A DNA stretch of 40,027 nt from Candidatus Niyogibacteria bacterium (GTDB lineage Bacteria > Patescibacteriota > Minisyncoccia > HO2-45-28): the NCBI GenBank assembly GCA_016177385.1, contig JACOVJ010000054.1:1-40027 (forward strand). Reading direction: 5' to 3'. The first letter of the stretch is position 1. The number at the start of each line of letters is the position of its first letter. The position numbers were made by a program, and so were the translations under genes. Below the pieces are notes generated by a model. The model ran no database searches, had not been told where the DNA came from, and saw nothing but the letters and a program-made list of their open reading frames with translations. Shown here piece by piece: positions 3,929 through 29,328 of the stretch.

Positions 3929-4002
3929 CCCCGAGGGGAGTCCTTTGGGTGCATAAGCTGTGGATAAGTGCTAGTTATCCACACAAAGGACTCCCCTCGG
4001 GG
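3929..4002. repeat. 74-nt palindromic repeat, long form, copy 1 (two consensus DnaA boxes)
   Basis: Perfect 19-bp arms CCCCGAGGGGAGTCCTTTG (3929-3947) / CAAAGGACTCCCCTCGGGG (3984-4002). Inner TGTGGATAA (3959-3967) and TTATCCACA (3975-3983). Confidence 0.9.
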
Positions 4003-5507: not shown

Positions 5508-6638
5508 ATGAATAGTAAAAAAGTCAATAATCGCATCATCGCGCACTTAGACCTCGACGCCTTTTTTGCGGCCGTCGAGGAGCGCGACCATCCGTGGCTT
5601 CAGGGTAAGCCGCTCGTGGTGGGCGCGGACCCGAACGGCGGGTGCGGGAGGGGTGTCGTTTCGACGGCGAGTTATGCCGCGCGCGCCTATGGTATCCGTT
5701 CGGCGATGCCGATTTCGAAGGCGTGGCAATTGTCCGAGGCGGCGCGCCGCGCCGGCAAAGAGCCCGCGACCTTTTTACTCGGCAACCACCATCGGTACGC
5801 CGAGGTTTCCGGCGCAGTAATGGAAATTGTTCGACACCGAGTGTCTAACATAGGGGCAACCGAGCAGAGTGGAATTGACGAGATTTACTGCGATTTAAGT
5901 TTTACGGAGTCGTTCGAAAACGCCGAGGTATTTGTTCGTAAAATAAAAAATGAAATACGGGAACGCGAATTTTTGACGATATCGGCGGGCATCGGGCCGA
6001 ATAAATTGATTGCGAAGATCGCATCGGAACGCCAAAAACCGGACGGGTTGACGCTCGTGCGTCCTGAACAAGTTCAGGATTTTTTGGATCCGCTTCCGGC
6101 GCGCGTCATCCCCGGCATCGGGCCGAAAACGGACGGGGCGCTCGCGAAAAATGGCGTCAAAACCATCCGCGATCTGCGCGCATTTAGTCGCGAAAAACTT
6201 ATCGAGCGGTTCGGCAAATGGGGGAGTGATTTATACAAAAAAGCGCGAGGTGAGGACGATTCTCCGGTGGAGGAATCGGATGAAATAAAATCGGTGGGTG
6301 AGCAGGAAACGTTTGAAACCGATACGCTCGAATTAGCGTTCGTTTGCGAACGGTTGAATGCATTATGCTCGGATGTGTTCCGGCGATTCTTGCGCGATGG
6401 ATTTAAAACATTCCGCACTATAGCGCTGACCGTGCGATTCGCGGATTTCCAAACGCAAAGCCGTGCGCATTCATTGAAAACGCCTGCTCGAACCGAATCC
6501 GTTTTACGGTTCGAGGCGCTCAAATCGCTCCTGCCGTTTTTTGATAAACGCGAAAATCCGCAGAGCAAAAAGCTCCGCCTGATCGGCGTGCGGGTGGAGA
6601 AGCTGTCTAAAACTTTTGACGGCCGTTCAAAGTTTTAG
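5508..6638 (+). CDS. dinB: DNA polymerase IV (Y-family)
   Basis: IAHLDLDAFFAAVEERD, SGIDEIYCDL, GIGPNKLIAKIAS, IPGIGPKT; full length, 376 aa. Confidence 0.95.
   Translation: MNSKKVNNRIIAHLDLDAFFAAVEERDHPWLQGKPLVVGADPNGGCGRGVVSTASYAARAYGIRSAMPISKAWQLSEAARRAGKEPATFLLGNHHRYAEVSGAVMEIVRHRVSNIGATEQSGIDEIYCDLSFTESFENAEVFVRKIKNEIREREFLTISAGIGPNKLIAKIASERQKPDGLTLVRPEQVQDFLDPLPARVIPGIGPKTDGALAKNGVKTIRDLRAFSREKLIERFGKWGSDLYKKARGEDDSPVEESDEIKSVGEQETFETDTLELAFVCERLNALCSDVFRRFLRDGFKTFRTIALTVRFADFQTQSRAHSLKTPARTESVLRFEALKSLLPFFDKRENPQSKKLRLIGVRVEKLSKTFDGRSKF
5829..5849. repeat. 21-nt hairpin GTTCGACAC-CGA-GTGTCTAAC inside dinB
   Basis: Near-identical copy at 32532-32552 (GTTAGACAC-CGA-GTGTCGAAC). Confidence 0.7.
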
Positions 6639-6643
6639 ACAGC
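6602..6643. repeat. 42-nt near-perfect palindrome covering the dinB stop codon
   Basis: 15-bp arms GCTGTCTAAAACTTT / AAAGTTTTAGACAGC around the palindromic loop TGACGGCCGTTC. Confidence 0.85.
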
Positions 6644-7692: not shown

Positions 7693-7808
7693 GGCATCTC
7701 CTTTGGGGAGTTATGAGCGTGAATATCCACGCTATTCTTAGTTCTTTTTATCTGTTTTGTCAAGGGTTAGTTGTCTTGCGAGAAGATCCTAGGAATAATA
7801 GGCGCATA

Positions 7809-8759
7809 ATGACCCCGCGGACATTCCGGAAAACGATCTACGATTTTTACCGTTCGTCGGGGCGCGACTTGCCGTGGCGTAAAACAAAAGACCCATATTA
7901 CATCCTCATTTCCGAAATGATGCTCCAGCAAACGCAGGCAGAGAGCGTGATTCCGAAATACGAAGCATTCATTCGCGCATTTCCGGATTTTCGCGCGCTT
8001 GCAACGGCGCCGCTCCGCAACATTTTAGCGCTCTGGAAGGGATTGGGCTATAACCGTCGCGCGTTATATCTAAAAAAAGCGGCCGAAATCGTAATACGAG
8101 AACATGGCGGCGCATTGCCGCGTGATGTCGAAAAACTCTCGGCGTTGCCCGGCATCGGCCGCGCGACCGCATCGGCAGTTGCGGCGTACGCGTTCAACCG
8201 GCCCGTTGTTTTCATCGAAACCAATATCCGGCGCACATTCATCCATCATTTTTTTAAAACCCGCCTCAACGAACAGGATGAGCGCATACCGCGAAAAAGG
8301 GCTTTCGGAGCGCGACGGCGCGAGAACGAGCCGATTTTTCAGCAGAAAAATACGGCGCACCTTTTTCGCGGTATGCGCGAAGACGGCTTTGAGGCGGGTT
8401 CTAGGACCAGTGCAGCAATCGATGATCGCGAACTCCTTCCGCTCGTCGCACGCATGCTCGACCGCCGGAATCCGCGGCGATGGTATAACGCACTGATGGA
8501 TTACGGCGCAATGCTCAAAAAACAGTATCCGAATCCGAACCGACGGAGCCGGCATTATACAAAACAAAAACCGTTCGAGGGGTCGGACCGTGAGATTCGC
8601 GGGAAAATCCTTGAAATGCTTTTGAAAAGACCGCGTCAGACCGAATGGGCGCTTGCGAGAGCCGCAGCGGTCGAACCCGAGCGGGTCCGACAATGCCTAA
8701 AACGGCTTAAAAACGAAGGAATCCTGCGTTATTCACACCCCTATTTTGCGATCGCATAA
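7809..8759 (+). CDS. HhH-GPD DNA glycosylase (MutY/Nth-like) lacking the Fe-S cysteine cluster
   Basis: LPWRKTKDPYYILISEMMLQQTQ, LPGIGRATASAV. The C-terminal region has only one Cys (no 4Fe-4S loop). ATG 7809 within ORF 7713.. Confidence 0.85.
   Translation: MTPRTFRKTIYDFYRSSGRDLPWRKTKDPYYILISEMMLQQTQAESVIPKYEAFIRAFPDFRALATAPLRNILALWKGLGYNRRALYLKKAAEIVIREHGGALPRDVEKLSALPGIGRATASAVAAYAFNRPVVFIETNIRRTFIHHFFKTRLNEQDERIPRKRAFGARRRENEPIFQQKNTAHLFRGMREDGFEAGSRTSAAIDDRELLPLVARMLDRRNPRRWYNALMDYGAMLKKQYPNPNRRSRHYTKQKPFEGSDREIRGKILEMLLKRPRQTEWALARAAAVEPERVRQCLKRLKNEGILRYSHPYFAIA
8258..8400. repeat. About 143-nt compound palindrome translated in frame within the glycosylase gene
   Basis: Outer arms AACCCGCCTCAA (8258-8269) / TTGAGGCGGGTT (8389-8400). 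Inner perfect 19-bp arms 8282-8300 / 8360-8378. Confidence 0.8.
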
Positions 8760-10662: not shown

Positions 10663-10736
10663 CCCCGAGGGGAGTCCTAGGGGTGGATAACTAGCACTTA
10701 TACACAGCTTATGCACCCAAAGGACTCCCCTCGGGG
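10663..10736. repeat. 74-nt palindromic repeat, long form, copy 2 (inverted relative to copy 1)
   Basis: CCCCGAGGGGAGTCCT...AAAGGACTCCCCTCGGGG. Boxes GGTGGATAA and TTATACACA each match 8/9. Confidence 0.9.
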
Positions 10737-12190: not shown

Positions 12191-13159
12191 ATGATGGAAC
12201 AAGCGCTCCGGGATTTTCCCCGTCAGCTTGAATTCGAGCCGACGATCGAAAACGAAGGCGCATTACGGCGCGCCAAGCGCGTGATCGTTTGTGGTATGGG
12301 TGGTTCGAACTTAGCGACCGGACTCGTTGCCGCAGCGCATCCCCGTGAGGATGTCCGCGCCCACCGCGATTACGGCCTCCCGATCCTTCCAAACGGCGAC
12401 CTCGAAGCAAGTTTGGTCGTCGCAAATTCGCATTCCGGCAATACCGAGGAAACGCTCGATGCGTTCGACCGGGCCGAGGAACGCGGATTGGCGCTTGCGG
12501 CCATGACCACCGGAGGGAAACTGTTGGAACGCGCAGAAAAAAACTCGATCCCGCTGATCCGGATCCCCGCCGGCGATCTTCAGCCGCGCTCGGCTCTGGG
12601 GTTCCATGTGCGCGCGCTGTTGAAACTGATGGGTGATGAGCAGGGGCTTGCGGAAATAAAGAAACTGGCAAGCGGTTTGGACGGCGACGCGGCCGAAAAG
12701 CGCGGTAAAGTCATTGCGAAAAAACTTACGGGATCGATCCCAATGATCTATGCGTCCGGACGCAATAAAACGCTTTCACATATTTGGAAAGTAAAAATAA
12801 ACGAAACAGCGAAAAGCCCCGCGTTCTGCAACGTGTTTCCGGAATTGAATCACAACGAAATGACGGGGTTTGATGTCGGGCAGGCCGTCAAACCGGTTTT
12901 CGGAAATTTTCATTTTCTTTTTTTGCGCGACCTCGACGATCATCCAAAGATCGTGAAACGGATGACCGAAACCGCAACGATCTTCAAAAAACTGGGATAC
13001 GGCGTTGATGATGTCGAGCTTGAAGGGAGCGGGCCGTGGGAAAAAATAGTGCGCATGCTGTTGATTTCCGATTGGGCCACATTTTATCTGGCGCGCGCGT
13101 ACGGAGTAGATCCGGAAGCGGTCCCGCTGGTGGAGGAATTCAAGAAGCGGATGGCATGA
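12191..13159 (+). CDS. Bifunctional phosphoglucose/phosphomannose isomerase (SIS domain, archaeal type)
   Basis: CGMGGSNLATG, SHSGNTEET, PELNHNEMTGF. Confidence 0.8.
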   Translation: MMEQALRDFPRQLEFEPTIENEGALRRAKRVIVCGMGGSNLATGLVAAAHPREDVRAHRDYGLPILPNGDLEASLVVANSHSGNTEETLDAFDRAEERGLALAAMTTGGKLLERAEKNSIPLIRIPAGDLQPRSALGFHVRALLKLMGDEQGLAEIKKLASGLDGDAAEKRGKVIAKKLTGSIPMIYASGRNKTLSHIWKVKINETAKSPAFCNVFPELNHNEMTGFDVGQAVKPVFGNFHFLFLRDLDDHPKIVKRMTETATIFKKLGYGVDDVELEGSGPWEKIVRMLLISDWATFYLARAYGVDPEAVPLVEEFKKRMA

Positions 13160-13163
13160 ACAG

Positions 13164-13331
13164 GAATCCCAAACGTTGTGGAGGATGCGTCGGGCTGGGC
13201 GGAAGCATGCTTCCGCCGGCCGAAGGCCGTGGCTTTGCGCCGCAGAAGCGCAAAGTGGGAACAATGGTTTTGCCCGCCAAAGGCGGGCGTCTAGAAATAG
13301 AGGCGAGCATCCGGAATAACGTTTGGGATTC
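13164..13331 (+). other. 168-nt multi-hairpin element E1 closed by GAATCCCAAACGTT / AACGTTTGGGATTC
   Basis: Perfect 14-bp closing stem (13164-13177 / 13318-13331). Inner hairpins at 13198-13217, 13218-13228, 13233-13255 and 13272-13288. Confidence 0.75.
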
Positions 13332-13348
13332 TTAAAGTGTATTGAATT

Positions 13349-14158
13349 ATGCGTTTGCTTTTCGATATCGGGGCCACGAAAACGCGTCTTGCGACAATAG
13401 AGGACGGAAAAACCTTCGGTGAGCCGCTGGTCATCCCGACCGAATCGGATTTTGAGGCGGGGATGGCGGCATTTGCGGCCGCGGCAAAAAAACTGATAAA
13501 GACCGGGCGCGCGGAATTCGCCGTGGGCGGCGCGGCGGGGCCCTTTGACCGTGACAAAACCACGATGGTCAATGCGCCTAATTTCCCGAATTGGCGCCGC
13601 CGGCCGCTAAAACAGCGGCTCGAGGATATCGCGCAGGCTCCCGTTTTTTTGGAAAACGATGCGGCGCTTGCGGGAGTGGGAGAATGGGCGTATGGAGCCG
13701 GGCGCGGTCACGGCATTGTAGCGTACCTGACGGTCAGCACGGGCGTGGGAGGCGCGCGCATCACGAATGGCGCCATTGATGCGAGCGCGCAGGGCTTCGA
13801 GCCCGGGCACCATATAATAGAAGCAAAAACGCGCCTGACGTTCGAAGCGGCGGTTTCGGGTTCGGCGGTCGAGCGCCGATTCGGCGTAAAACCGCAGACG
13901 ATCTCGGATGCGGGGTTATGGGAGGAATTGGCGGAAAAACTGGCGGTCGGTATTCATAATGCGATCGTTTTCTGGTCGCCGGATGTCGTTATTCTCGGCG
14001 GCTCGATGATCTTGGGAGATCCCGCGATTCCGCTCGACCGCACGGAGGCGCACCTTGCCGCACTTCCGCAGATCTTTCCGGAACTTCCAAAAATCGAAAA
14101 AGCGGCACTCGGCGATTTTTCGGTCCTGTACGGCGCGCTCGCGCTTGCCAATCGGTAA
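13349..14158 (+). CDS. ROK-family sugar kinase (glucokinase-like)
   Basis: LFDIGATKTRLA, ENDAALAGVGEW, TVSTGVGGA. Confidence 0.85.
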   Translation: MRLLFDIGATKTRLATIEDGKTFGEPLVIPTESDFEAGMAAFAAAAKKLIKTGRAEFAVGGAAGPFDRDKTTMVNAPNFPNWRRRPLKQRLEDIAQAPVFLENDAALAGVGEWAYGAGRGHGIVAYLTVSTGVGGARITNGAIDASAQGFEPGHHIIEAKTRLTFEAAVSGSAVERRFGVKPQTISDAGLWEELAEKLAVGIHNAIVFWSPDVVILGGSMILGDPAIPLDRTEAHLAALPQIFPELPKIEKAALGDFSVLYGALALANR

Positions 14159-14211
14159 AAAATAGGGTACTCTTTTTTGAAACCAGCAGTCCTTTGACAG
14201 GAGGGCCGGAT

Positions 14212-15690
14212 ATGGCGCAGAGCTTCGTGGAAAAGATCGAAAAAGCTCCGATTGAACTGTCCTACGATGACGTTTTGATCCGTCCTTTGTATTCGGAAAT
14301 CTCTCCGCTCGAAGTGGATACCAACAGCCGGTTCAGCAGCCATATCTCGCTTAAGGTGCCGATCGTGTCGTCGCCGATGGATACGGTGACCGAACATTTG
14401 TTGGCGATCGGGATCGCGTGCGCGGGCGGCTTGGGAATCATCCATAAAAATCTTTCCATTGCCGATCAGGTGGAAGAAATCGCAAAAGTGAAGCGGTGGC
14501 AAAGCGGGAAGATCGTAAATCCGCAGATGCTTCGTCCGAATCAGACGATCGGGGATGCGCGTCGGCGCATGGAGCACGAAGGAATTTCCGGGTTTTTGGT
14601 CGTTGATTCCGCGGGGAAACTGGTAGGGCTTCTGACGCGGCGCGATTTTGATTACGATCCGCTCGGCGACAGCGTGCTGGTCGGCGACGTGATGACGTCG
14701 AACGAAGCCGGTGAACTCATTTGGGCGAACGAACAAACGACGATGGAGCAGGCGCAAGAAATTTTGTGGAAACATCGCATCGAGAAACTTCCCATCGTGG
14801 ATGCGGATTTTCGTCCCAAAGGCCTTTTTACCAAAAAGGATATCCGGAAACGGCGTCAGTTTCCGAATGCGACGCATGATGCGCACGGGCGGTTGTGTGT
14901 GGGCGCGGCGGTAGGAGCGGTCGGCGATTTTCTGGAGCGCGCAAAAGCGCTGGTGGAAGCCGGTGTCGATGTCATCGTCGTGGATGCGTCGCTTGGGCAT
15001 ACAAAAAATGTCGGCGAGGCGGTGCGCGCGCTCAAAAAACTTCCCGAAATGCCGGATGTGGTCGCCGGGAATATCGTGACGGCGGATGCCGCAAGGTTTC
15101 TGATGGATGCGGGTGCGGATGGATTGCGGGTCGGTATCGGTCCCGGTTCGATCTGCACCACGCGCATGGTCACGGGGTACGGCCGGCCGCAACTCTCGGC
15201 GGTTGCCGATGTTGCGGATGCGGCGGGAGGGATCGTTCCGGTCATTGCGGATGGCGGTATCAAGTTGTCGGGCGATATCGTGAAGGCGCTTGCGGGCGGC
15301 GCCGATAGCATCATGATCGGAAATCTCTTGGCGCGAACCGACGAAAGCGCGGGCGAAATCGTGCAGCGGGGCAGCCAACGATACAAAAAATATCGAGGGA
15401 TGGGTTCGAAGGCGGTGCTGGAGGCGGGCGGCGATCGGTATCCTAGGAAATCTGTTCCCGAAGGCGAGGAGGGTTTGGTTCCATGTGCGGGGCCGCTTGC
15501 GGATGTGTTTCGGCAGCTGGAGGGCGGCTTGCGTCAGGGGATGGGTGGCGTCGGTTGCCGGACGATCGATGAGCTTCGTTCAAAAACATTTTTTGAGCGC
15601 ATTACATCGGCGGGACTTCAGGAAAGCCATGTGCATGACATTTGGCTCGAAACCGAACCCCCTCCCAATTTCCGGAATTGGAATCAGTGA
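14212..15690 (+). CDS. guaB: Inosine-5'-monophosphate dehydrogenase
   Basis: LSYDDVLIRP, CBS pair, GIGPGSICTTR, GMGS. AGGAGGG RBS 6 nt upstream of ATG 14212. Confidence 0.95.
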   Translation: MAQSFVEKIEKAPIELSYDDVLIRPLYSEISPLEVDTNSRFSSHISLKVPIVSSPMDTVTEHLLAIGIACAGGLGIIHKNLSIADQVEEIAKVKRWQSGKIVNPQMLRPNQTIGDARRRMEHEGISGFLVVDSAGKLVGLLTRRDFDYDPLGDSVLVGDVMTSNEAGELIWANEQTTMEQAQEILWKHRIEKLPIVDADFRPKGLFTKKDIRKRRQFPNATHDAHGRLCVGAAVGAVGDFLERAKALVEAGVDVIVVDASLGHTKNVGEAVRALKKLPEMPDVVAGNIVTADAARFLMDAGADGLRVGIGPGSICTTRMVTGYGRPQLSAVADVADAAGGIVPVIADGGIKLSGDIVKALAGGADSIMIGNLLARTDESAGEIVQRGSQRYKKYRGMGSKAVLEAGGDRYPRKSVPEGEEGLVPCAGPLADVFRQLEGGLRQGMGGVGCRTIDELRSKTFFERITSAGLQESHVHDIWLETEPPPNFRNWNQ

Positions 15691-15699
15691 TTTTCGACT

Positions 15700-15738
15700 C
15701 CCAAAATTCGCCCGTCGGCGAATTTTGGGGGTTTTTTA
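15700..15738 (+). terminator. Intrinsic terminator of guaB
   Basis: 13-bp stem CCCAAAATTCGCC / GGCGAATTTTGGG, loop CGTC, then GGTTTTTT. Confidence 0.85.
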
Positions 15739-15739
15739 T

Positions 15740-15902
15740 TAGAATCCATCTCAAAATGGCTTTGAAGGCGAAATCGCGCGAATTTCGTCGCGAGACCGCC
15801 GCCGCAGGGGCGATTCGTACTGGAAGTACGATGAGTCCCGAGAAGGCGGCCGAACAGAAATTCGCCGATTGGAGCCCAAATGCATTTTTGAGATGGATTC
15901 TA
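15740..15902 (+). other. 163-nt element E2 closed by TAGAATCCATCTCAAAA / TTTTGAGATGGATTCTA
   Basis: Perfect 17-bp closing stem (15740-15756 / 15886-15902). Its last 3 nt are the stop codon of the convergent - strand gene. Confidence 0.75.
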
Positions 15903-16799
15903 GAGCGCGTTCAAAATCTTCAGTTTTTCCGTGAGCTCCTCGTTGCACTCCGAAACCGTGGCCGCGATCATTTCCTCGAGATGGGGGATTTTTTGCTTCA
16001 AAAATGTATCGAGATCGTCGTCGCGGTTTCTATGGTCGAGTAATTCAAAAAGAGGTTCTTTATCGGGCGCGCAAAGTCCATTGAGTATTCGCCAGCCGAC
16101 CTGTCCATGAACAAGGGAATAAGCGGCATCGAACAGGCGGTCGAGGTCGGCGGGCGCGATCACTTCCAGCCCCCGTTCCTTAAAGATATTCGAGGTCGTT
16201 TCTGCGGTCGTTTTGTTGCTTGAGTTTTTAAGTGCTCTTTGCAAGCGCGCATTATTTTTTACTGCGCTGAATTTTTCCAGCCACCAATGGATCGGCGGCG
16301 TCGTCTCGTGAATGCCTGAAGCGATCAGGCGCTCGATCGCGGCAGAGGCCACGGTTTCCATTCGGTGCCGGCCTGCCGAAGACGCATTTCCGCCGGAAAG
16401 CGCCGCGAGCGTGTGATTCAAAACAAAAAACGCAGTATTTTCGAGGACGCCGGCCAAAAGAAGGGCGGCCGCCGAGGTTTTGTGCCGCGGCGGCTGGCGG
16501 TACTGCCAGCGCTCGGCTTTTTTCAGGTACCACGATTCCCGGGGTCCGGCATGCTTCATTTCGTAGGCGTAAAAAAGCGCGGTCTCGTTTTCGGCAAGCA
16601 AAATCAGAGCGTGCGCCGGAGAAAAATTTTCTCCGAGTTTTTGTTTGGCCCACGAACCGGCGAACTCGTGATAAGCGGCCCGCGCCAGACGCGCTTCCCG
16701 CTCCTGGGCGTTTTTCATCCACGCTTCGAGACCCGGTTCCTTGGCCCCCCATTTCCTGTTTTGCCATCCTTCAAATGCCGCAAAGAGCGCGCGTTCCAT
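15900..16799 (-). CDS. Hypothetical protein (about 299 aa)
   Basis: ORF 15900..16967 trimmed to the Met at 16799 (MERALFAAFEGW), because the upstream part overlaps a better + strand small ORF. No family recognised. Confidence 0.6.
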   Translation of the reverse strand: MERALFAAFEGWQNRKWGAKEPGLEAWMKNAQEREARLARAAYHEFAGSWAKQKLGENFSPAHALILLAENETALFYAYEMKHAGPRESWYLKKAERWQYRQPPRHKTSAAALLLAGVLENTAFFVLNHTLAALSGGNASSAGRHRMETVASAAIERLIASGIHETTPPIHWWLEKFSAVKNNARLQRALKNSSNKTTAETTSNIFKERGLEVIAPADLDRLFDAAYSLVHGQVGWRILNGLCAPDKEPLFELLDHRNRDDDLDTFLKQKIPHLEEMIAATVSECNEELTEKLKILNAL

Positions 16800-16860
16800 T
16801 CTTTTATGGTAGCGCACTTGACATGTTGCGTTTTCCACATAAAACGCAATACTATGGGAT

Positions 16861-17019
16861 ATGTGGCAATTATGGACCGCGGGGACTCTGGGCATCCTGA
16901 TGGCGCTGGTCCCGTTTTTGGGCTTTACTCCCGACCTTAAGGACGTCATTACGGTCGCGTTCGGCATTGCGATCGCCGTTTTCGTGTTTTGGGCGTTGGG
17001 AGTGAAAAAGCCGGCGTAA
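16861..17019 (+). CDS. Candidate 52-aa two-TM membrane protein (below the ORF-track cutoff)
   Basis: MWQLWTAGTLGILMALVPFLGFTPDLKDVITVAFGIAIAVFVFWALGVKKPA. TACTAT lies 5 nt upstream of the ATG. Confidence 0.4.
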   Translation: MWQLWTAGTLGILMALVPFLGFTPDLKDVITVAFGIAIAVFVFWALGVKKPA

Positions 17020-17035: not shown

Positions 17036-18238
17036 ATGCCGAAACGCTATTGCATCATTGGCGGCGGGATCGCGGGGATCACGGCTGCCGAAACCATCCG
17101 CGCGCACGACGGCGAAGGGGATATTCTGGTGATCTCGGCGGAGCCGCATCCGCTCTATTCGCGGGTTTCGCTTCCGGCGTATGTTTCGGGAGAATTGGAA
17201 CGCGAGCGGGTGATGATGCGCACGCTCCGCGATTATGCAGAGCGAAACATCCGGCTGTTTCCCTCCGAACGCGTGATCGAGGTTCGACCTCGAATTCGAG
17301 GGCGAACCTCGGGAGGAGAAGTAAAGACCGCATCCGGGAAGACATTTGAATATGATGCCTTACTTATCGCAACAGGCGGCCGTCCCGTGGAATGGCCGCA
17401 CGACGAGGTTGTATCGGAACGCATATTCCGTCTGCATACGCTCGACGACGCCCTACGCCTGCGCGAATTTTTTAACAGGCATCCGGCCCGCTTCGCCAGC
17501 CTCGCGTCTAGGCGGGCCGGAACTCCCGCTTCGCTCGCGAAGCGAGGCGAGTCAGCGAGGCGGTCGGTCGGTCGGGTCATTGTTGCCGGCGGGGGATTTA
17601 TCGCTTTAGAGCTTGCCGAGATTTTCCGGACAAAAAAATTCGACGTCACGTTTCTGGTGCGCGGCCCGCAATTTTGGAGCGGCAAATGGGTCGACCCCGC
17701 CGACCACGACCGACTCACCGATTTGTGGAAGAAAAACGGGGTGCGGGCGATTTTCGGTGATGCGGTCCGCGAAATGGAAGAGAATAATGGAGCGGTGCGG
17801 ATCCGCACGACCGCAGGGCGCGACATTGTCGCAGATTGCGTTGCGATCGCGATCGGGATCGAATGCGAGCCGGATTTTGTTCCGCGAAAAATTCTTGGAA
17901 GCCTCGCTTCCAAGAACTTGGAAGCGAGGCTTCCAAACGGAGTTGTGGTAAACAAATACTTGGAAACCGAGTTTCCAAACGTATGGGCCGCCGGGGATGC
18001 GATGCGGTGCGCGGCGGACGGCGAACCTCAGGGGTCGCAGAATTGGTCAAGCGCGGTTCTGTCCGGACAGGCCGCGGGAATGAATATGATGGGCGAGTAC
18101 GGTAGGGGAACGCGCAAAGTATTTCGTTTGCCGCCCCGGTATTCCGTCGGCCACTTCGGCGCTGTGCTAAAATGGGAAAATGGCCGCTCTTTTTTTAAAA
18201 GCAACCCCGACCCCGAGGGGAGTCCTCGGGGTGGATAA
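17036..18238 (+). CDS. FAD-dependent pyridine nucleotide-disulfide oxidoreductase
   Basis: YCIIGGGIAGITAAE, LLIATGGRP, VIVAGGGFIALELAE, VWAAGD. The last 11 codons and the stop lie inside repeat copy 3. Confidence 0.85.
   Translation: MPKRYCIIGGGIAGITAAETIRAHDGEGDILVISAEPHPLYSRVSLPAYVSGELERERVMMRTLRDYAERNIRLFPSERVIEVRPRIRGRTSGGEVKTASGKTFEYDALLIATGGRPVEWPHDEVVSERIFRLHTLDDALRLREFFNRHPARFASLASRRAGTPASLAKRGESARRSVGRVIVAGGGFIALELAEIFRTKKFDVTFLVRGPQFWSGKWVDPADHDRLTDLWKKNGVRAIFGDAVREMEENNGAVRIRTTAGRDIVADCVAIAIGIECEPDFVPRKILGSLASKNLEARLPNGVVVNKYLETEFPNVWAAGDAMRCAADGEPQGSQNWSSAVLSGQAAGMNMMGEYGRGTRKVFRLPPRYSVGHFGAVLKWENGRSFFKSNPDPEGSPRGG
17483..17564. repeat. GC-rich hairpin cluster translated in frame (PARFASLASRRAGTPASLAKRGESARR)
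   Basis: 9-bp stem 17483-17491 / 17512-17520, and hairpin CGCTTCG-CTCG-CGAAGCG at 17527-17544. Shares CCCGCTTCGCC and GCGAGGCGG with the terminator at 4844-4873. Confidence 0.65.
17894..17937. repeat. Two tandem 21-nt hairpins that are reverse complements of each other, in frame
   Basis: CTTGGAAGC-CTC-GCTTCCAAG, then AA, then CTTGGAAGC-GAG-GCTTCCAA; encodes LGSLASKNLEARLP. Confidence 0.8.
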
Positions 18239-18284
18239 CTCATACTTATCCACAGTTTATGCACCCAAAGGACTCCCCTCGGGG
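18211..18284. repeat. 74-nt palindromic repeat, long form, copy 3
   Basis: CCCCGAGGGGAGTCCTCGGGGTGGATAA...TTATCCACAG...AAAGGACTCCCCTCGGGG; perfect TTATCCACA at 18246-18254. Confidence 0.9.
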
Positions 18285-18295
18285 TTTTCAATGCA

Positions 18296-21334: not shown

Positions 21335-21375
21335 CAAAGGGGAGTCCTTTTCTGATTCCTAAGGACTACCCTTTG
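21335..21375. repeat. Short GGGGAGTCC-family hairpin
   Basis: CAAAGGGGAGTCCTT - TTCTGATTCCT - AAGGACTACCCTTTG (one mismatch in the arms). Confidence 0.85.
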
Positions 21376-21410
21376 TGAAAATGCGGATAACTCGACTTGA
21401 CAAGGACATA

Positions 21411-21438
21411 TTGACATGCTCCTGTTTTGTGCTATAAT
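21411..21438 (+). promoter_or_regulatory. Consensus sigma70-type promoter TTGACA-N16-TATAAT
   Basis: TTGACA 21411-21416, TATAAT 21433-21438 preceded by TGTGC; a second TTGACA at 21397-21402. Confidence 0.7.
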
Positions 21439-21471
21439 GGGCGCATCCTGTACCTTGCAAACCACTATTCG

Positions 21472-21515
21472 CCCCGAGGGGAGTCCTAGGGGTGGATAAA
21501 CTGTGGATAAGTAAG
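21472..21515. repeat. Half copy of the long repeat with two tandem DnaA-box-like sites
   Basis: CCCCGAGGGGAGTCCTAGGGGTGGATAAACTGTGGATAAG. No right arm. Lies in the leader of the 21542 gene. Confidence 0.8.
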
Positions 21516-22423: not shown

Positions 22424-22463
22424 CCCCCCACCCGTTTTTAACGGGTGGGGGGATTTTTTTTTC
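22424..22463 (+). terminator. Strong intrinsic terminator
   Basis: 11-bp stem CCCCCCACCCG / CGGGTGGGGGG, 7-nt loop, nine T. Confidence 0.85.
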
Positions 22464-22507
22464 ACAAAGGGGAGTCCTTTTCTGGTTCTTAAGGACTCCC
22501 CTTTGTG
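22463..22507. repeat. Short GGGGAGTCC-family hairpin
   Basis: Perfect 17-bp arms CACAAAGGGGAGTCCTT / AAGGACTCCCCTTTGTG, loop TTCTGGTTCTT. Confidence 0.9.
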
Positions 22508-22515
22508 AAACTCTT

Positions 22516-22544
22516 AGGAATCAGAAAAGGACTACCCTCGGGGG
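22516..22544. repeat. Chimeric partial repeat (short-form loop plus long-form arm)
   Basis: AGGAATCAGAA-AAGGACTACCCTCGGGG; a perfect TGTGGATAA follows at 22562-22570. Confidence 0.7.
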
Positions 22545-22577
22545 CCGCTCTTTGTTCCGTGTGTGGATAACTTGCAG

Positions 22578-25512: not shown

Positions 25513-25564
25513 GAATCTAGCGTCGTGAAATTTATCGGGGGTGGAACTCGATAGTAGAATCCCA

Positions 25565-25608
25565 CGAGGTTCTTCCTCGTAAGATTCGAGGTTCTTCCTC
25601 GTAAGATT
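25565..25608. repeat. Perfect tandem duplication of a 22-nt hairpin unit
   Basis: CGAGGTTCTTCCTCGTAAGATT twice (25565-25586 and 25587-25608), bracketed by TAGAATC / GATTCTA. Confidence 0.9.
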
Positions 25609-25633
25609 CTAATCAAGGACGATTTCTAAATTC

Positions 25634-25653
25634 TACGAGGCTCGGCCTCATAC
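25634..25653. repeat. REP-like hairpin A (GAGGC-TCG-GCCTC), overlapping the transposase stop
   Basis: TACGAGGCTCGGCCTCATAC. Confidence 0.85.
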
Positions 25654-26343
25654 ATTGTTATCTAGAGCCACTTCGTCCATTTCTTCTGTATTAGTTTTCC
25701 AATCCCGGATCCATTCTTTAGTTTTTTGTTTATAGTTTTGTTTGCCATCAAAATAATCTAAAAGAAAATCTCGCGTCGTTATCGACGGGAAGTTTTTCTT
25801 TCCCATATAATCCGGAAAACTGCTCCATCGATAGTTTTCTAAAAATTGCATCCGCACACTTAATGAGGCCGAGCCTCGTACCCGTACGTTTTGCAGATCA
25901 AGCGGATTCATGTGTATGTAATGGGGAATGTGCATGAGATGCGATTCGCGGTCAATGCGAATCGCCTTGAATTTCCCTTGAAAAAGAGGGCCGACGCGCT
26001 TATATTTTTGATTGAAATACATTACATAACCAGTTCCCAATTTGTGCATAAATCTTGGAACCCCACTCTCATCTTTTGCGCGCACCAACAAGTGAAAGTG
26101 ATTTGGCATCAGCGTAAATATCAAAATATCCACCAATTGTTTCCTTGATGTATGAGGCTCGGCCTCATACGATTTGATGTGGGGCTTGCAATGGGCATCA
26201 AGAGCGGGTGCTTCGTCATTGAATTCAAAAAGATTATGAATAAATCTGTAATAATCTTTTTCATTTGAGAAGATATTTCTCTTCTCAACGCCGCGGTTAT
26301 AAATATGATATATCTCATTTTCCGCAAAGCTTTCTTTTCTCAT
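25648..26343 (-). CDS. Y1 HUH transposase, IS200-like / REP-associated (RAYT-like)
   Basis: YHIYNRG, MPNHFHLLV (HUH), GPLFQGKFKA, HYIHMNP (catalytic Tyr region), ENYRWSS. Confidence 0.9.
   Translation of the reverse strand: MRKESFAENEIYHIYNRGVEKRNIFSNEKDYYRFIHNLFEFNDEAPALDAHCKPHIKSYEAEPHTSRKQLVDILIFTLMPNHFHLLVRAKDESGVPRFMHKLGTGYVMYFNQKYKRVGPLFQGKFKAIRIDRESHLMHIPHYIHMNPLDLQNVRVRGSASLSVRMQFLENYRWSSFPDYMGKKNFPSITTRDFLLDYFDGKQNYKQKTKEWIRDWKTNTEEMDEVALDNNV
25863..25880. repeat. REP-like hairpin B (GAGGC-CGA-GCCTC), inside the CDS
   Basis: ATGAGGCCGAGCCTCGTA; encodes RGSAS. Confidence 0.85.
26151..26172. repeat. REP-like hairpin C (GAGGC-TCG-GCCTC), inside the CDS
   Basis: TATGAGGCTCGGCCTCATACGA; encodes SYEAEPHT. 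Confidence 0.85.
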
Positions 26344-26349
26344 AAAGGA

Positions 26350-26358
26350 ATGATAACA
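26350..26358 (-). promoter_or_regulatory. Extended -10 TGTTATCAT, 6 nt upstream of the transposase ATG
   Basis: The reverse complement of 26341-26362 reads TTCATGTTATCATTCCTTTATG. Confidence 0.45.
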
Positions 26359-26367
26359 TGAATAAAG

Positions 26368-26388
26368 TATGAGGCCGAGCCTCAGTAA
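26368..26388. repeat. REP-like hairpin D (GAGGC-CGA-GCCTC), upstream of the transposase
   Basis: GTATGAGGCCGAGCCTCAGTA. Confidence 0.85.
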
Positions 26389-29251: not shown

Positions 29252-29328
29252 GCGTTTACGCGCTTTCCATTTTCTTTTCTCGACACGCTCGAATGCCCCT
29301 GCGAGGCATTCTTACTCACTCCAATTTT

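Follow-up and report, generated by a model that had tools for sequence, protein, structure and literature searches.

The window analyzed here, a whole contig of 40,027 bp from a metagenome-assembled genome of Candidatus Niyogibacteria (Parcubacteria; Candidate Phyla Radiation, CPR), carries three strongly folded intergenic elements, called E1, E2, and E3, which probably form a family of palindromic insertion elements that are non-coding, closed by hairpins, and specific to this lineage, similar to the MITEs (miniature transposable elements with inverted repeats) of bacteria and to the Rickettsia palindromic elements (RPEs). A truncated copy at 29257-29320 belongs to the same family, to which an insert within a DNA glycosylase gene, E0, probably belongs too. 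The original prediction had left the choice between a class of structured RNAs and a hairpin-ended mobile element; the evidence favors the mobile element. Comparison with related genomes, above all JACOYI01 (GCA_016181935.1), a genome collinear with the window and about 70-87% identical to it in nucleotide sequence, shows that the elements are DNA insertions at gene boundaries, beside stop or start codons, and once in frame within a gene. From one collinear genome to another, copies have been gained, lost, or truncated, one element is found in both orientations between the same two genes, at two loci, and the sequence of the closing helix varies freely, always on both arms. The three elements lie as follows.

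E1, 13162-13333, forward strand: 172 nt, hairpin-closed, between PGI (12191-13159) and ROK glucokinase (13349-14158).
E2, 15740-15902, forward strand: 163 nt, flanked by the terminator hairpin of IMPDH (15696-15733) and by the 3' end of a DUF5663 gene on the minus strand (15900-16967).
E3, 31303-31510, forward strand: 208 nt, between the genes for the transketolase subunits N (tktN, 30441-31301) and C (tktC, 31518-32519).

All three are found where the original prediction had placed them, and both sequence and folds bear out their closure by helices ending in GAATCC and GGATTC. The closing helices have 17-25 bp with outer ends (A/G)GAATCC...GGATTCT, and pair 13162-13179 with 13316-13333 in E1, 15740-15756 with 15886-15902 in E2, and, imperfectly, 31303-31331 with 31481-31510 in E3. 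E1 also has a second helix (13183-13188 with 13307-13312) and five internal hairpins, and the four perfect hairpins previously listed for it (13198-13217, 13218-13228, 13233-13255, and 13272-13288) are all present. Folded as RNA, E1, E2, and E3 reach -97.8, -86.8, and -96.1 kcal/mol, with z-scores of -8.55, -8.54, and -8.15 against 200 shuffles each, none of which was as stable. The plain pattern GAATCC-N(120-210)-GGATTC occurs six times in the window versus about one expected, with some of the matches in coding DNA; the end motif with a complementary extension occurs only in E1-E3, in the window as in the Parcubacteria DNA scanned (up to 2.9 Mb). Since E1 is identical in an independent Logan assembly (contig L001) and E3 is also present in a second genome, the elements are not assembly artifacts.

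The insertional nature of the elements emerges from their loci. In relatives with about 58-66% ROK identity, PGI and ROK overlap by ATGA or lie one base apart, with no spacer between them. In the window, PGI still ends in ATGA, followed by E1 and then by a new ROK ATG 17 nt past the element; hence, E1 was inserted between two translationally coupled genes. In JACOYI01, the spacer between PGI and ROK contains an E1 homolog (L082 10972-11091) in reverse orientation, which lacks three of the hairpins of E1. E2, which sits beyond the separate and intact IMPDH terminator and with its last bases provides the TAG stop of the convergent DUF5663 gene, is absent from JACOYI01. There the empty site is clean, TTTTTTCT being directly followed by TAGAGCGC, and the filled site of the window reads TTTTTTAT, then TA-GAATCC...GGATTC-TA, then GAGCGC.

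E3 has an ortholog in JACOYI01 that straddles a contig break (L002 3863-4053 and L307 1-118). The end of JACOYI010000007 (L002 3960-4053) and the start of JACOYI010000005 (L307 1-94) overlap by 94 nt inside this ortholog, and these contigs, 7 and 5, are therefore adjacent in the genome; the assembly probably broke here because the E3 core recurs in the GAPDH-RpiB spacer. Indeed, that spacer of JACOYI01 (L002 about 1280-1445) has a full E3-type element, reversed with respect to E3, and the window has a remnant of it.

Truncated E3-type element, 29257-29320, reverse strand: in the GAPDH-RpiB spacer; keeps the left arm and the first hairpin, GAATGCCCCTGCGAGGCATTC.

Other relatives vary further at the tkt junction. 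Logan relative L308 (tktC 88% identical) has a reversed E3 homolog with the ends GAATTC...GAATTC, and L309 (84%) has no element, only an 11-nt spacer, TAAGTGAAAATTTTATG; this empty site suggests an insertion at the center of AAAATTTT without duplication. A doubtful distant candidate with GAACCC ends also lies at a tkt junction (L018 2910-3052). Over the 191 nt on contig 7, E3 is 98.9% identical to its JACOYI01 ortholog. This figure was rejected as clean evidence of selection, because identity is likewise 95-96% in the 400 nt of tktN next to the element, and it may reflect a recombination tract. Nucleotide identity between the window and JACOYI01 stays at 95-99% across the 3' half of tktN and E3 (window 30882-31510). 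Divergence between the two genomes is a mosaic, with third-codon identity of 49-54% in PGI and ROK and of 78% in IMPDH (window 14194-15690), and suggests recombination between their lineages; a metagenome scan with the IMPDH query gave no match above 53% identity.

A further probable copy, which the original prediction had not listed, turned up in a scan for unusually stable folds, with a z-score of -6.4.

E0, 8257-8403, forward strand: 147 nt (49 codons), in frame in an open reading frame (ORF) similar to HhH-GPD or A/G-specific adenine glycosylases (7713-8759).

Its closing helix pairs 8259-8270 with 8390-8401 and has the ends AAAACCC...GGGTTCT. The insert is free of stops and adds 49 residues after FIHHFF, with the frame and the downstream domain kept; it is missing from the JACOYI01 ortholog and from four other relatives. 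The chance that an insert of its composition would be open and in frame is about 0.12 x 1/3. In the AlphaFold model, residues 187-233, which correspond to E0, have pLDDT below 50, between flanks that are confidently folded. E0 is probably the fourth member of the family, tied to it by ends and design, its interior similarity being insignificant. In this gene, another lineage (P0124, L304 about 904-1190, ENA ERZ4903072; also L305 and L306) carries a palindromic insert that differs from E0, is about 290 nt long, and adds 96 residues. The open frame of the L304 insert has P = 0.009 by shuffling, and its codon position is the same as that of E0, after CATCATTTTTT. Because unrelated palindromic inserts share one codon position, the gene appears to have an insertion hot spot after CATCATTTTTT.

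How uniform is this family? From E0 to E3 the elements measure 147-208 nt and have no ORF of their own, E0 being read through within its host gene. Their terminal inverted repeats, that is the closing helices, have 12-25 bp when E0 is included, of which only the outer 6-7 bp are common between copies, and the end motif varies between copies only by compensated Y/R changes (GAATCC/GGATTC, GAACCC/GGGTTC, and GAATTC/GAATTC). Extra hairpins are gained or lost as blocks, whereas the central core is conserved. Similarity of the interiors is significant in three comparisons: E1 with its ortholog, E3 with the GAPDH-RpiB copy (z 49), and E2 with E3 (z 6.1). E0 and E1 are joined to the other copies by end motif and design alone. 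This qualifies the single architecture that the original prediction had proposed for E1, E2, and E3: The ends of 6-7 bp and the overall design hold, and nothing further links E1 to the other two. Likewise, the motifs CCGCAGAAG and AGGCGAGC that E1 and E3 were said to share do exist, but the similarity of the two interiors does not exceed that of shuffled sequences (z 1.1).

The helices of the elements are maintained by paired changes, as the original prediction had supposed in speaking of covarying stems. Among the 37 pairs that can be aligned between E1 and its JACOYI01 homolog, 30 are unchanged, one has a one-sided change, six have double changes, and none is broken. All the double changes, two of which are transversion pairs, fall in the closing helix, about one-third of whose pairs have been replaced between the genomes. 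The E3 group (E3, its JACOYI01 ortholog, the L308 homolog, and the GAPDH-RpiB copy) has a consensus of 50 pairs predicted by RNAalifold, in which 98% of the cells are paired. It has nine double-change pairs versus 4.4 +/- 1.2 in shuffles (0/500 reaching that number) and 0-1 when partners are slid. These samples are small, with 2-4 sequences per group; nevertheless, the helices are evidently maintained, because double changes exceed the controls and 98% of the cells stay paired.

Features expected of small mobile elements come together in the family: The elements are shorter than about 500 bp and lack a transposase ORF, are bounded by terminal inverted repeats, and are present or absent at the same site in different genomes, all of which are criteria for prokaryotic MITEs. 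The original prediction had stated that absence or variability between near-identical strains, with target-site duplications, would favor a plain MITE. Absence and variability between related genomes are what we find; duplication is only hinted at by the TA at E2 and E0. The flanks are TA/TA at these two elements, AG/TT at E1, and AA/TT at E3.

Several observations weigh against the interpretation as palindromic insertion elements. The copies are not near-identical, interior homology being shared only by E2, E3, and the GAPDH-RpiB copy, and the four to five copies in 40 kb are highly divergent; copy counts cover about 75 kb of two lineages, made up of the 40-kb contig plus some 36 kb from JACOYI01. 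No parent insertion sequence (IS) or transposase with GAAYCC ends was found in these 75 kb, and there is no consistent target-site duplication, TA or TAGA standing twice at E2 and once in the empty site. An 18-mer taken from the E1 core has a single occurrence in the JACOYI01 assembly, and the exact search for it in 185,579 genomes gave the known JACOYI01 locus and chance matches only. The same core keeps 90-100% identity from one genome to the other, compared with 49-54% at the third codon positions in PGI and ROK beside it, a pattern that resembles purifying selection more than the decay of selfish DNA. Finally, six copies can be oriented by homology, and in each of them the same strand of the element gives the better fold, by 2-21 kcal/mol, even though three of them lie antisense to their host genes; this bias suggests a functional single-stranded form. 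When E1-E3 were compared by BLAST with Parcubacteria loci totaling 1.6 Mb, and up to 2.9 Mb were scanned for the end motif and long helices, only the relatives in JACOYI01 and L308 came to light, plus the doubtful candidate mentioned above, the one possible copy outside this small clade; no core motifs were found in viral contigs.

Some of these points would be accommodated if the elements were a family of functional structured RNAs, either small-RNA genes or cis-acting elements of mRNAs. Their core would then be functional, their closing helix would need only to pair, and their scattered locations would reflect duplicated or mobile RNA genes. The very strong folds, the covariation above controls, and the contrast between the E1 core and its flanks, with arms that change only in compensated fashion, would all fit this explanation, as would the strand that folds better in 6/6 oriented copies and the fact that two of the three substitutions in the E3 ortholog are wobble-neutral on that same strand. 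We nevertheless consider it unlikely. Orientation with respect to the surrounding operon is reversed in three of seven copies, and scans for sigma-70 promoters and terminators found no convincing promoter and no terminator belonging to the elements. No neighboring gene is common to the flanks of E1, E2, and E3. One probable copy, E0, is translated within a protein, one copy is truncated, and orthologous sites are empty in close relatives. The interiors of E0, of E1, and of the group of E2 and E3 are unrelated. Rfam 15 gives no match to the elements at the gathering threshold and none at E <= 0.5 (the best match on E1, from a permissive scan, has E = 3.3); the tRNA/tmRNA scan gave nothing on the elements. 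A riboswitch or attenuator in particular was rejected: The genes that follow the elements differ, and E2 is followed by none on its strand.

Compensated change and strand bias do not decide the matter. They are equally expected of a functional RNA, of a palindrome homogenized by template switching, and of a palindrome that acts as single-stranded DNA. From the wobble pairs the original prediction had concluded that the forward strand matters. The pairs 13163/13332 and 31326/31486 are real, the latter being C-G in JACOYI01, and one strand of the element does always fold better; yet in three copies this very strand is antisense to the host genes, and it is therefore no pointer to operon mRNA.

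Could the active form then be a single strand of another kind? The elements might represent an undescribed mobile element of CPR bacteria defined by structure, which acts as one single strand, either of DNA, handled by an enzyme of the HUH/Y1 type, or of an RNA intermediate. We hold this to be improbable too, to nearly the same degree as functional RNAs. It has the merit that it would jointly explain the unrelated interiors, the concerted arms, the cores conserved far above the neutral rate, and the strand bias that is independent of orientation. That a partner would recognize the 6-bp end motif, the conserved core, and the overall hairpin is an equally tentative proposition.

Still more doubtful is an explanation that would make the elements hairpin substrates of single-stranded DNA, comparable with REP/BIME/REPIN repeats or IS200/IS605 ends, that are mobilized by a transposase encoded in the window itself, with the end motif as cleavage site and the better-folding strand as active strand.

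RAYT-like Y1 (IS200-like) transposase gene, 25648-26343, reverse strand: the only transposase-type gene among the 13 window ORFs scanned.
Two REP units within E-type ends (TAGAATCC...GATTCTA), 25556-25612, forward strand: directly 3' of the RAYT-like gene.

The protein scores 37.3 bits with Pfam Y1_Tnp (cut-off 23) and 40 bits with NCBIfam REP_Tyr_transpos, which is below the cut-off of 80, and its translation shows an HUH motif (HFH) and the motif YIHMNP. Its gene lies in the same 40 kb as the elements, next to REP units that are bracketed by E-type ends; which strand folds better does not depend on how the host gene is oriented, as a strand-specific mechanism acting on single-stranded DNA predicts, and the lack of a regular target duplication fits Y1 chemistry. 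However, the gene (window 25634-26384) is flanked by a REP palindrome of its own, the 20-nt TAYGAGG-N5-CCTCRTA, and a hairpin of this kind also flanks its homologs in over 10 Parcubacteria genomes but is absent from E0-E3; a link through the REP hairpin was therefore rejected. Left flanks of the elements (ACAG, ATTA, AAAA, and TTTA) share no tetranucleotide, and JACOYI01 carries E elements, although a non-exhaustive peptide scan gave no RAYT relative there. The E-type ends near the gene are compatible with chance, and their bracketing of the REP units may be just that, because AGAATCC is not enriched in the window once E1-E3 are removed.

It is very improbable that the elements are strong hairpins without any relationship, such as terminators, chance palindromes, or artifacts of assembly, that happen to share six end bases: The interior similarity of E1 to other copies is insignificant and the plain end pattern does arise by chance in coding DNA, but the motif with its long complementary extension is confined to E1-E3 in 2.9 Mb of Parcubacteria DNA, the only variation of the ends in relatives consists of compensated Y/R changes, independent assemblies confirm E1 and E3, and E2 follows a separate, intact terminator.

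If the elements are palindromic insertions of the MITE and RPE type, how would they acquire their peculiar features? Since every element forms an inverted repeat, its interior would be flipped in place when the two arms recombine or a template switch occurs between them, and this process, or selection for the hairpin, would keep the arms complementary. The ends nGAAYCC...GGRTTCn and the conserved core would be recognized by a mobilizing enzyme acting in trans, leaving the interior otherwise unconstrained. Elements lying in operon spacers would be transcribed passively, giving double-stranded RNA stems of 17-25 bp that might be cut by RNase III or might stabilize the transcript, as for Correia and ERIC elements. 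Comparable behavior is on record: For bacterial MITEs and RPEs there are reports of inversion, of cleavage by RNase III at the inverted repeats, and of insertion in frame, and for Correia elements, of in-place reversal by exchange between arms (PMC10969869).

The E elements are accompanied by other repeats. Two more REP palindromes lie in frame within the RAYT-like gene, one at 26150-26170 encoding YEAEPHT and the other at 25856-25880 encoding VRGSASL. A second repeat family consists of REPIN-like palindromes of about 75 nt, CCCCGAGGGGAGTCC...GGACTCCCCTCGGGG, at 3929-4002, 10663-10736, and 18210-18285 of the window, with related copies at about 21338-21510, 22460-22570, and 33440-33475 and copies also in JACOYI01. 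Their centers carry inverted 9-mers similar to DnaA boxes (TTATCCACA); with at most one mismatch, such 9-mers number 19 in the window versus 4.9 expected. The ORF for a pyridine nucleotide-disulphide oxidoreductase (17036-18238) contains in-frame palindromes, especially at 17278-17311 and 17895-17936, comprising a REP-like hairpin, CGAGGTTCGACCTCG, and a perfect palindrome of 42 nt that encodes LGSLASKNLEARLP. It also has an extra segment of about 20 residues (FASLASRRAGTPASLAKRGES) that is missing from the JACOYI01 ortholog. Palindromes that lie in frame seem to be general in this genome. At 6602-6643, 37666-37703, and 38321-38364 there are further near-perfect palindromes, which measure 38-44 nt and have strongly negative fold scores.

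A separate MITE-like family occurs across genera of Parcubacteria, with conserved inverted ends CCCGTTAGAG...CTCTAACGGG and an AT-rich, variable interior of 77-125 nt. It has direct flank repeats of 5 bp (ATGAA, ATAAA, CTCAT, and GCTTG), often lies exactly at ATGA stop/start junctions, and has no match in Rfam. The copies of this CCCGTTAGAG family are the following.

L037: 6249-6366.
L083: 1692-1816 and 12254-12330.
L109: 14148-14264.
L116: 9903-10000.
L121: 10987-11105.
L150: 14032-14130.
L153: 8690-8798.
L159: 1194-1288.

A relationship of this family with the E elements was rejected, because the GAATCCC that it shares with E1 is part of its target duplication. In addition, a small GIY-YIG-like ORF lies within a 21-bp inverted repeat at L051 1050-1341, and a tRNA-like sequence within an 18-bp inverted repeat of the CCCGTTA type at L153 8689-8799.

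CPR (Patescibacteria) genomes are small and streamlined, and our full-text search of the literature turned up no account of intergenic elements, MITE-like or palindromic, in CPR bacteria. If the interpretation as palindromic insertion elements is true, even these genomes are actively remodeled by selfish palindromes, which would split coupled genes, as in PGI/ROK, donate stop codons, as E2 does, and add peptide loops, as E0 does to a DNA glycosylase. Three features deserve attention: the conservation of the core next to arms that change fast and in concert, the bias of folding toward one strand, and the repeated reversal in place. A slow core next to fast concerted arms, together with two in-place reversals, offers a compact natural system for studying how palindromes are maintained, and the contrast between core and arms leaves room for a sequence-specific partner. 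There are practical consequences as well. The elements break metagenome assemblies, as the contig break of JACOYI01 inside E3 illustrates, and in annotation, screens based on folding will mistake E elements for structured RNAs.

Among known systems, the behavior of the E elements matches that of bacterial MITEs, and most closely that of RPEs; this is an analogy, since the RPE families are restricted to Rickettsia and the host here is a CPR bacterium. Membership of a named family is not claimed. RPEs are palindromic, non-coding elements that lie between genes and in frame within genes, produce no regular duplication, and deteriorate between relatives. The E elements are likewise palindromic insertions of 100-200 nt in a small genome of the host-associated type. 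They occur in intergenic spacers and in frame within a gene with the fold kept (E0 only here), lack their own transposase and a regular target duplication, comprise several divergent families, and decay or are lost between related genomes. The differences are that the phylum is another one, so that the likeness concerns described behavior and a sequence relationship is not expected; that only one of about five E copies is intragenic; and that the E elements have multi-hairpin interiors with the short conserved ends GAAYCC/GGRTTC. To our knowledge, in-place reversal has not been described as a property of RPEs, whereas it is documented for the E elements.

Correia repeat-enclosed elements, a MITE of Neisseria, and ERIC/IRU elements share with the E elements their small size and non-coding nature, their bounding inverted repeats, their location in transcribed spacers in either orientation, and a long stem in the transcript; both families have been reported to undergo inversion and to have effects through RNase III or RNase E (PMC10969869). 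Like E copies, ERIC copies differ from one another by blocks inserted internally, and the TA flanks of E2 and E0 recall the TA duplication of Correia elements, even if TA is not general among E elements. In contrast to both families, which have a consensus, E copies have in common their ends of 6-7 bp and, for some, the core.

The resemblance to REP, BIME, and REPIN repeats with their RAYT partners lies in the hairpin-forming, extragenic nature of the repeats, in the presence of a RAYT-like gene in the window, and in strand-asymmetric folding; the genome of the window also carries separate REP- and REPIN-like repeats. Yet the E elements are 4-8 times longer than a REP, have heterogeneous hairpins, and lack the REP hairpin of this RAYT clade. 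They differ from IS200/IS605 elements, too, in that their left flanks have no conserved tetra- or pentanucleotide and that they are closed by terminal inverted repeats, not by subterminal hairpins. Integron attC sites offer a last parallel: In these as in the E elements, only the outermost base pairs are conserved and the rest is free if paired, one strand folds better, and the location is at the 3' ends of genes. However, no integrase or cassette array was found among the 13 ORFs scanned, and the E elements have the ends GAAYCC/GGRTTC instead of RYYYAAC/GTTRRRY, a length of 150-210 nt with a multi-branched interior, and an orientation that is not fixed with respect to the neighboring gene.

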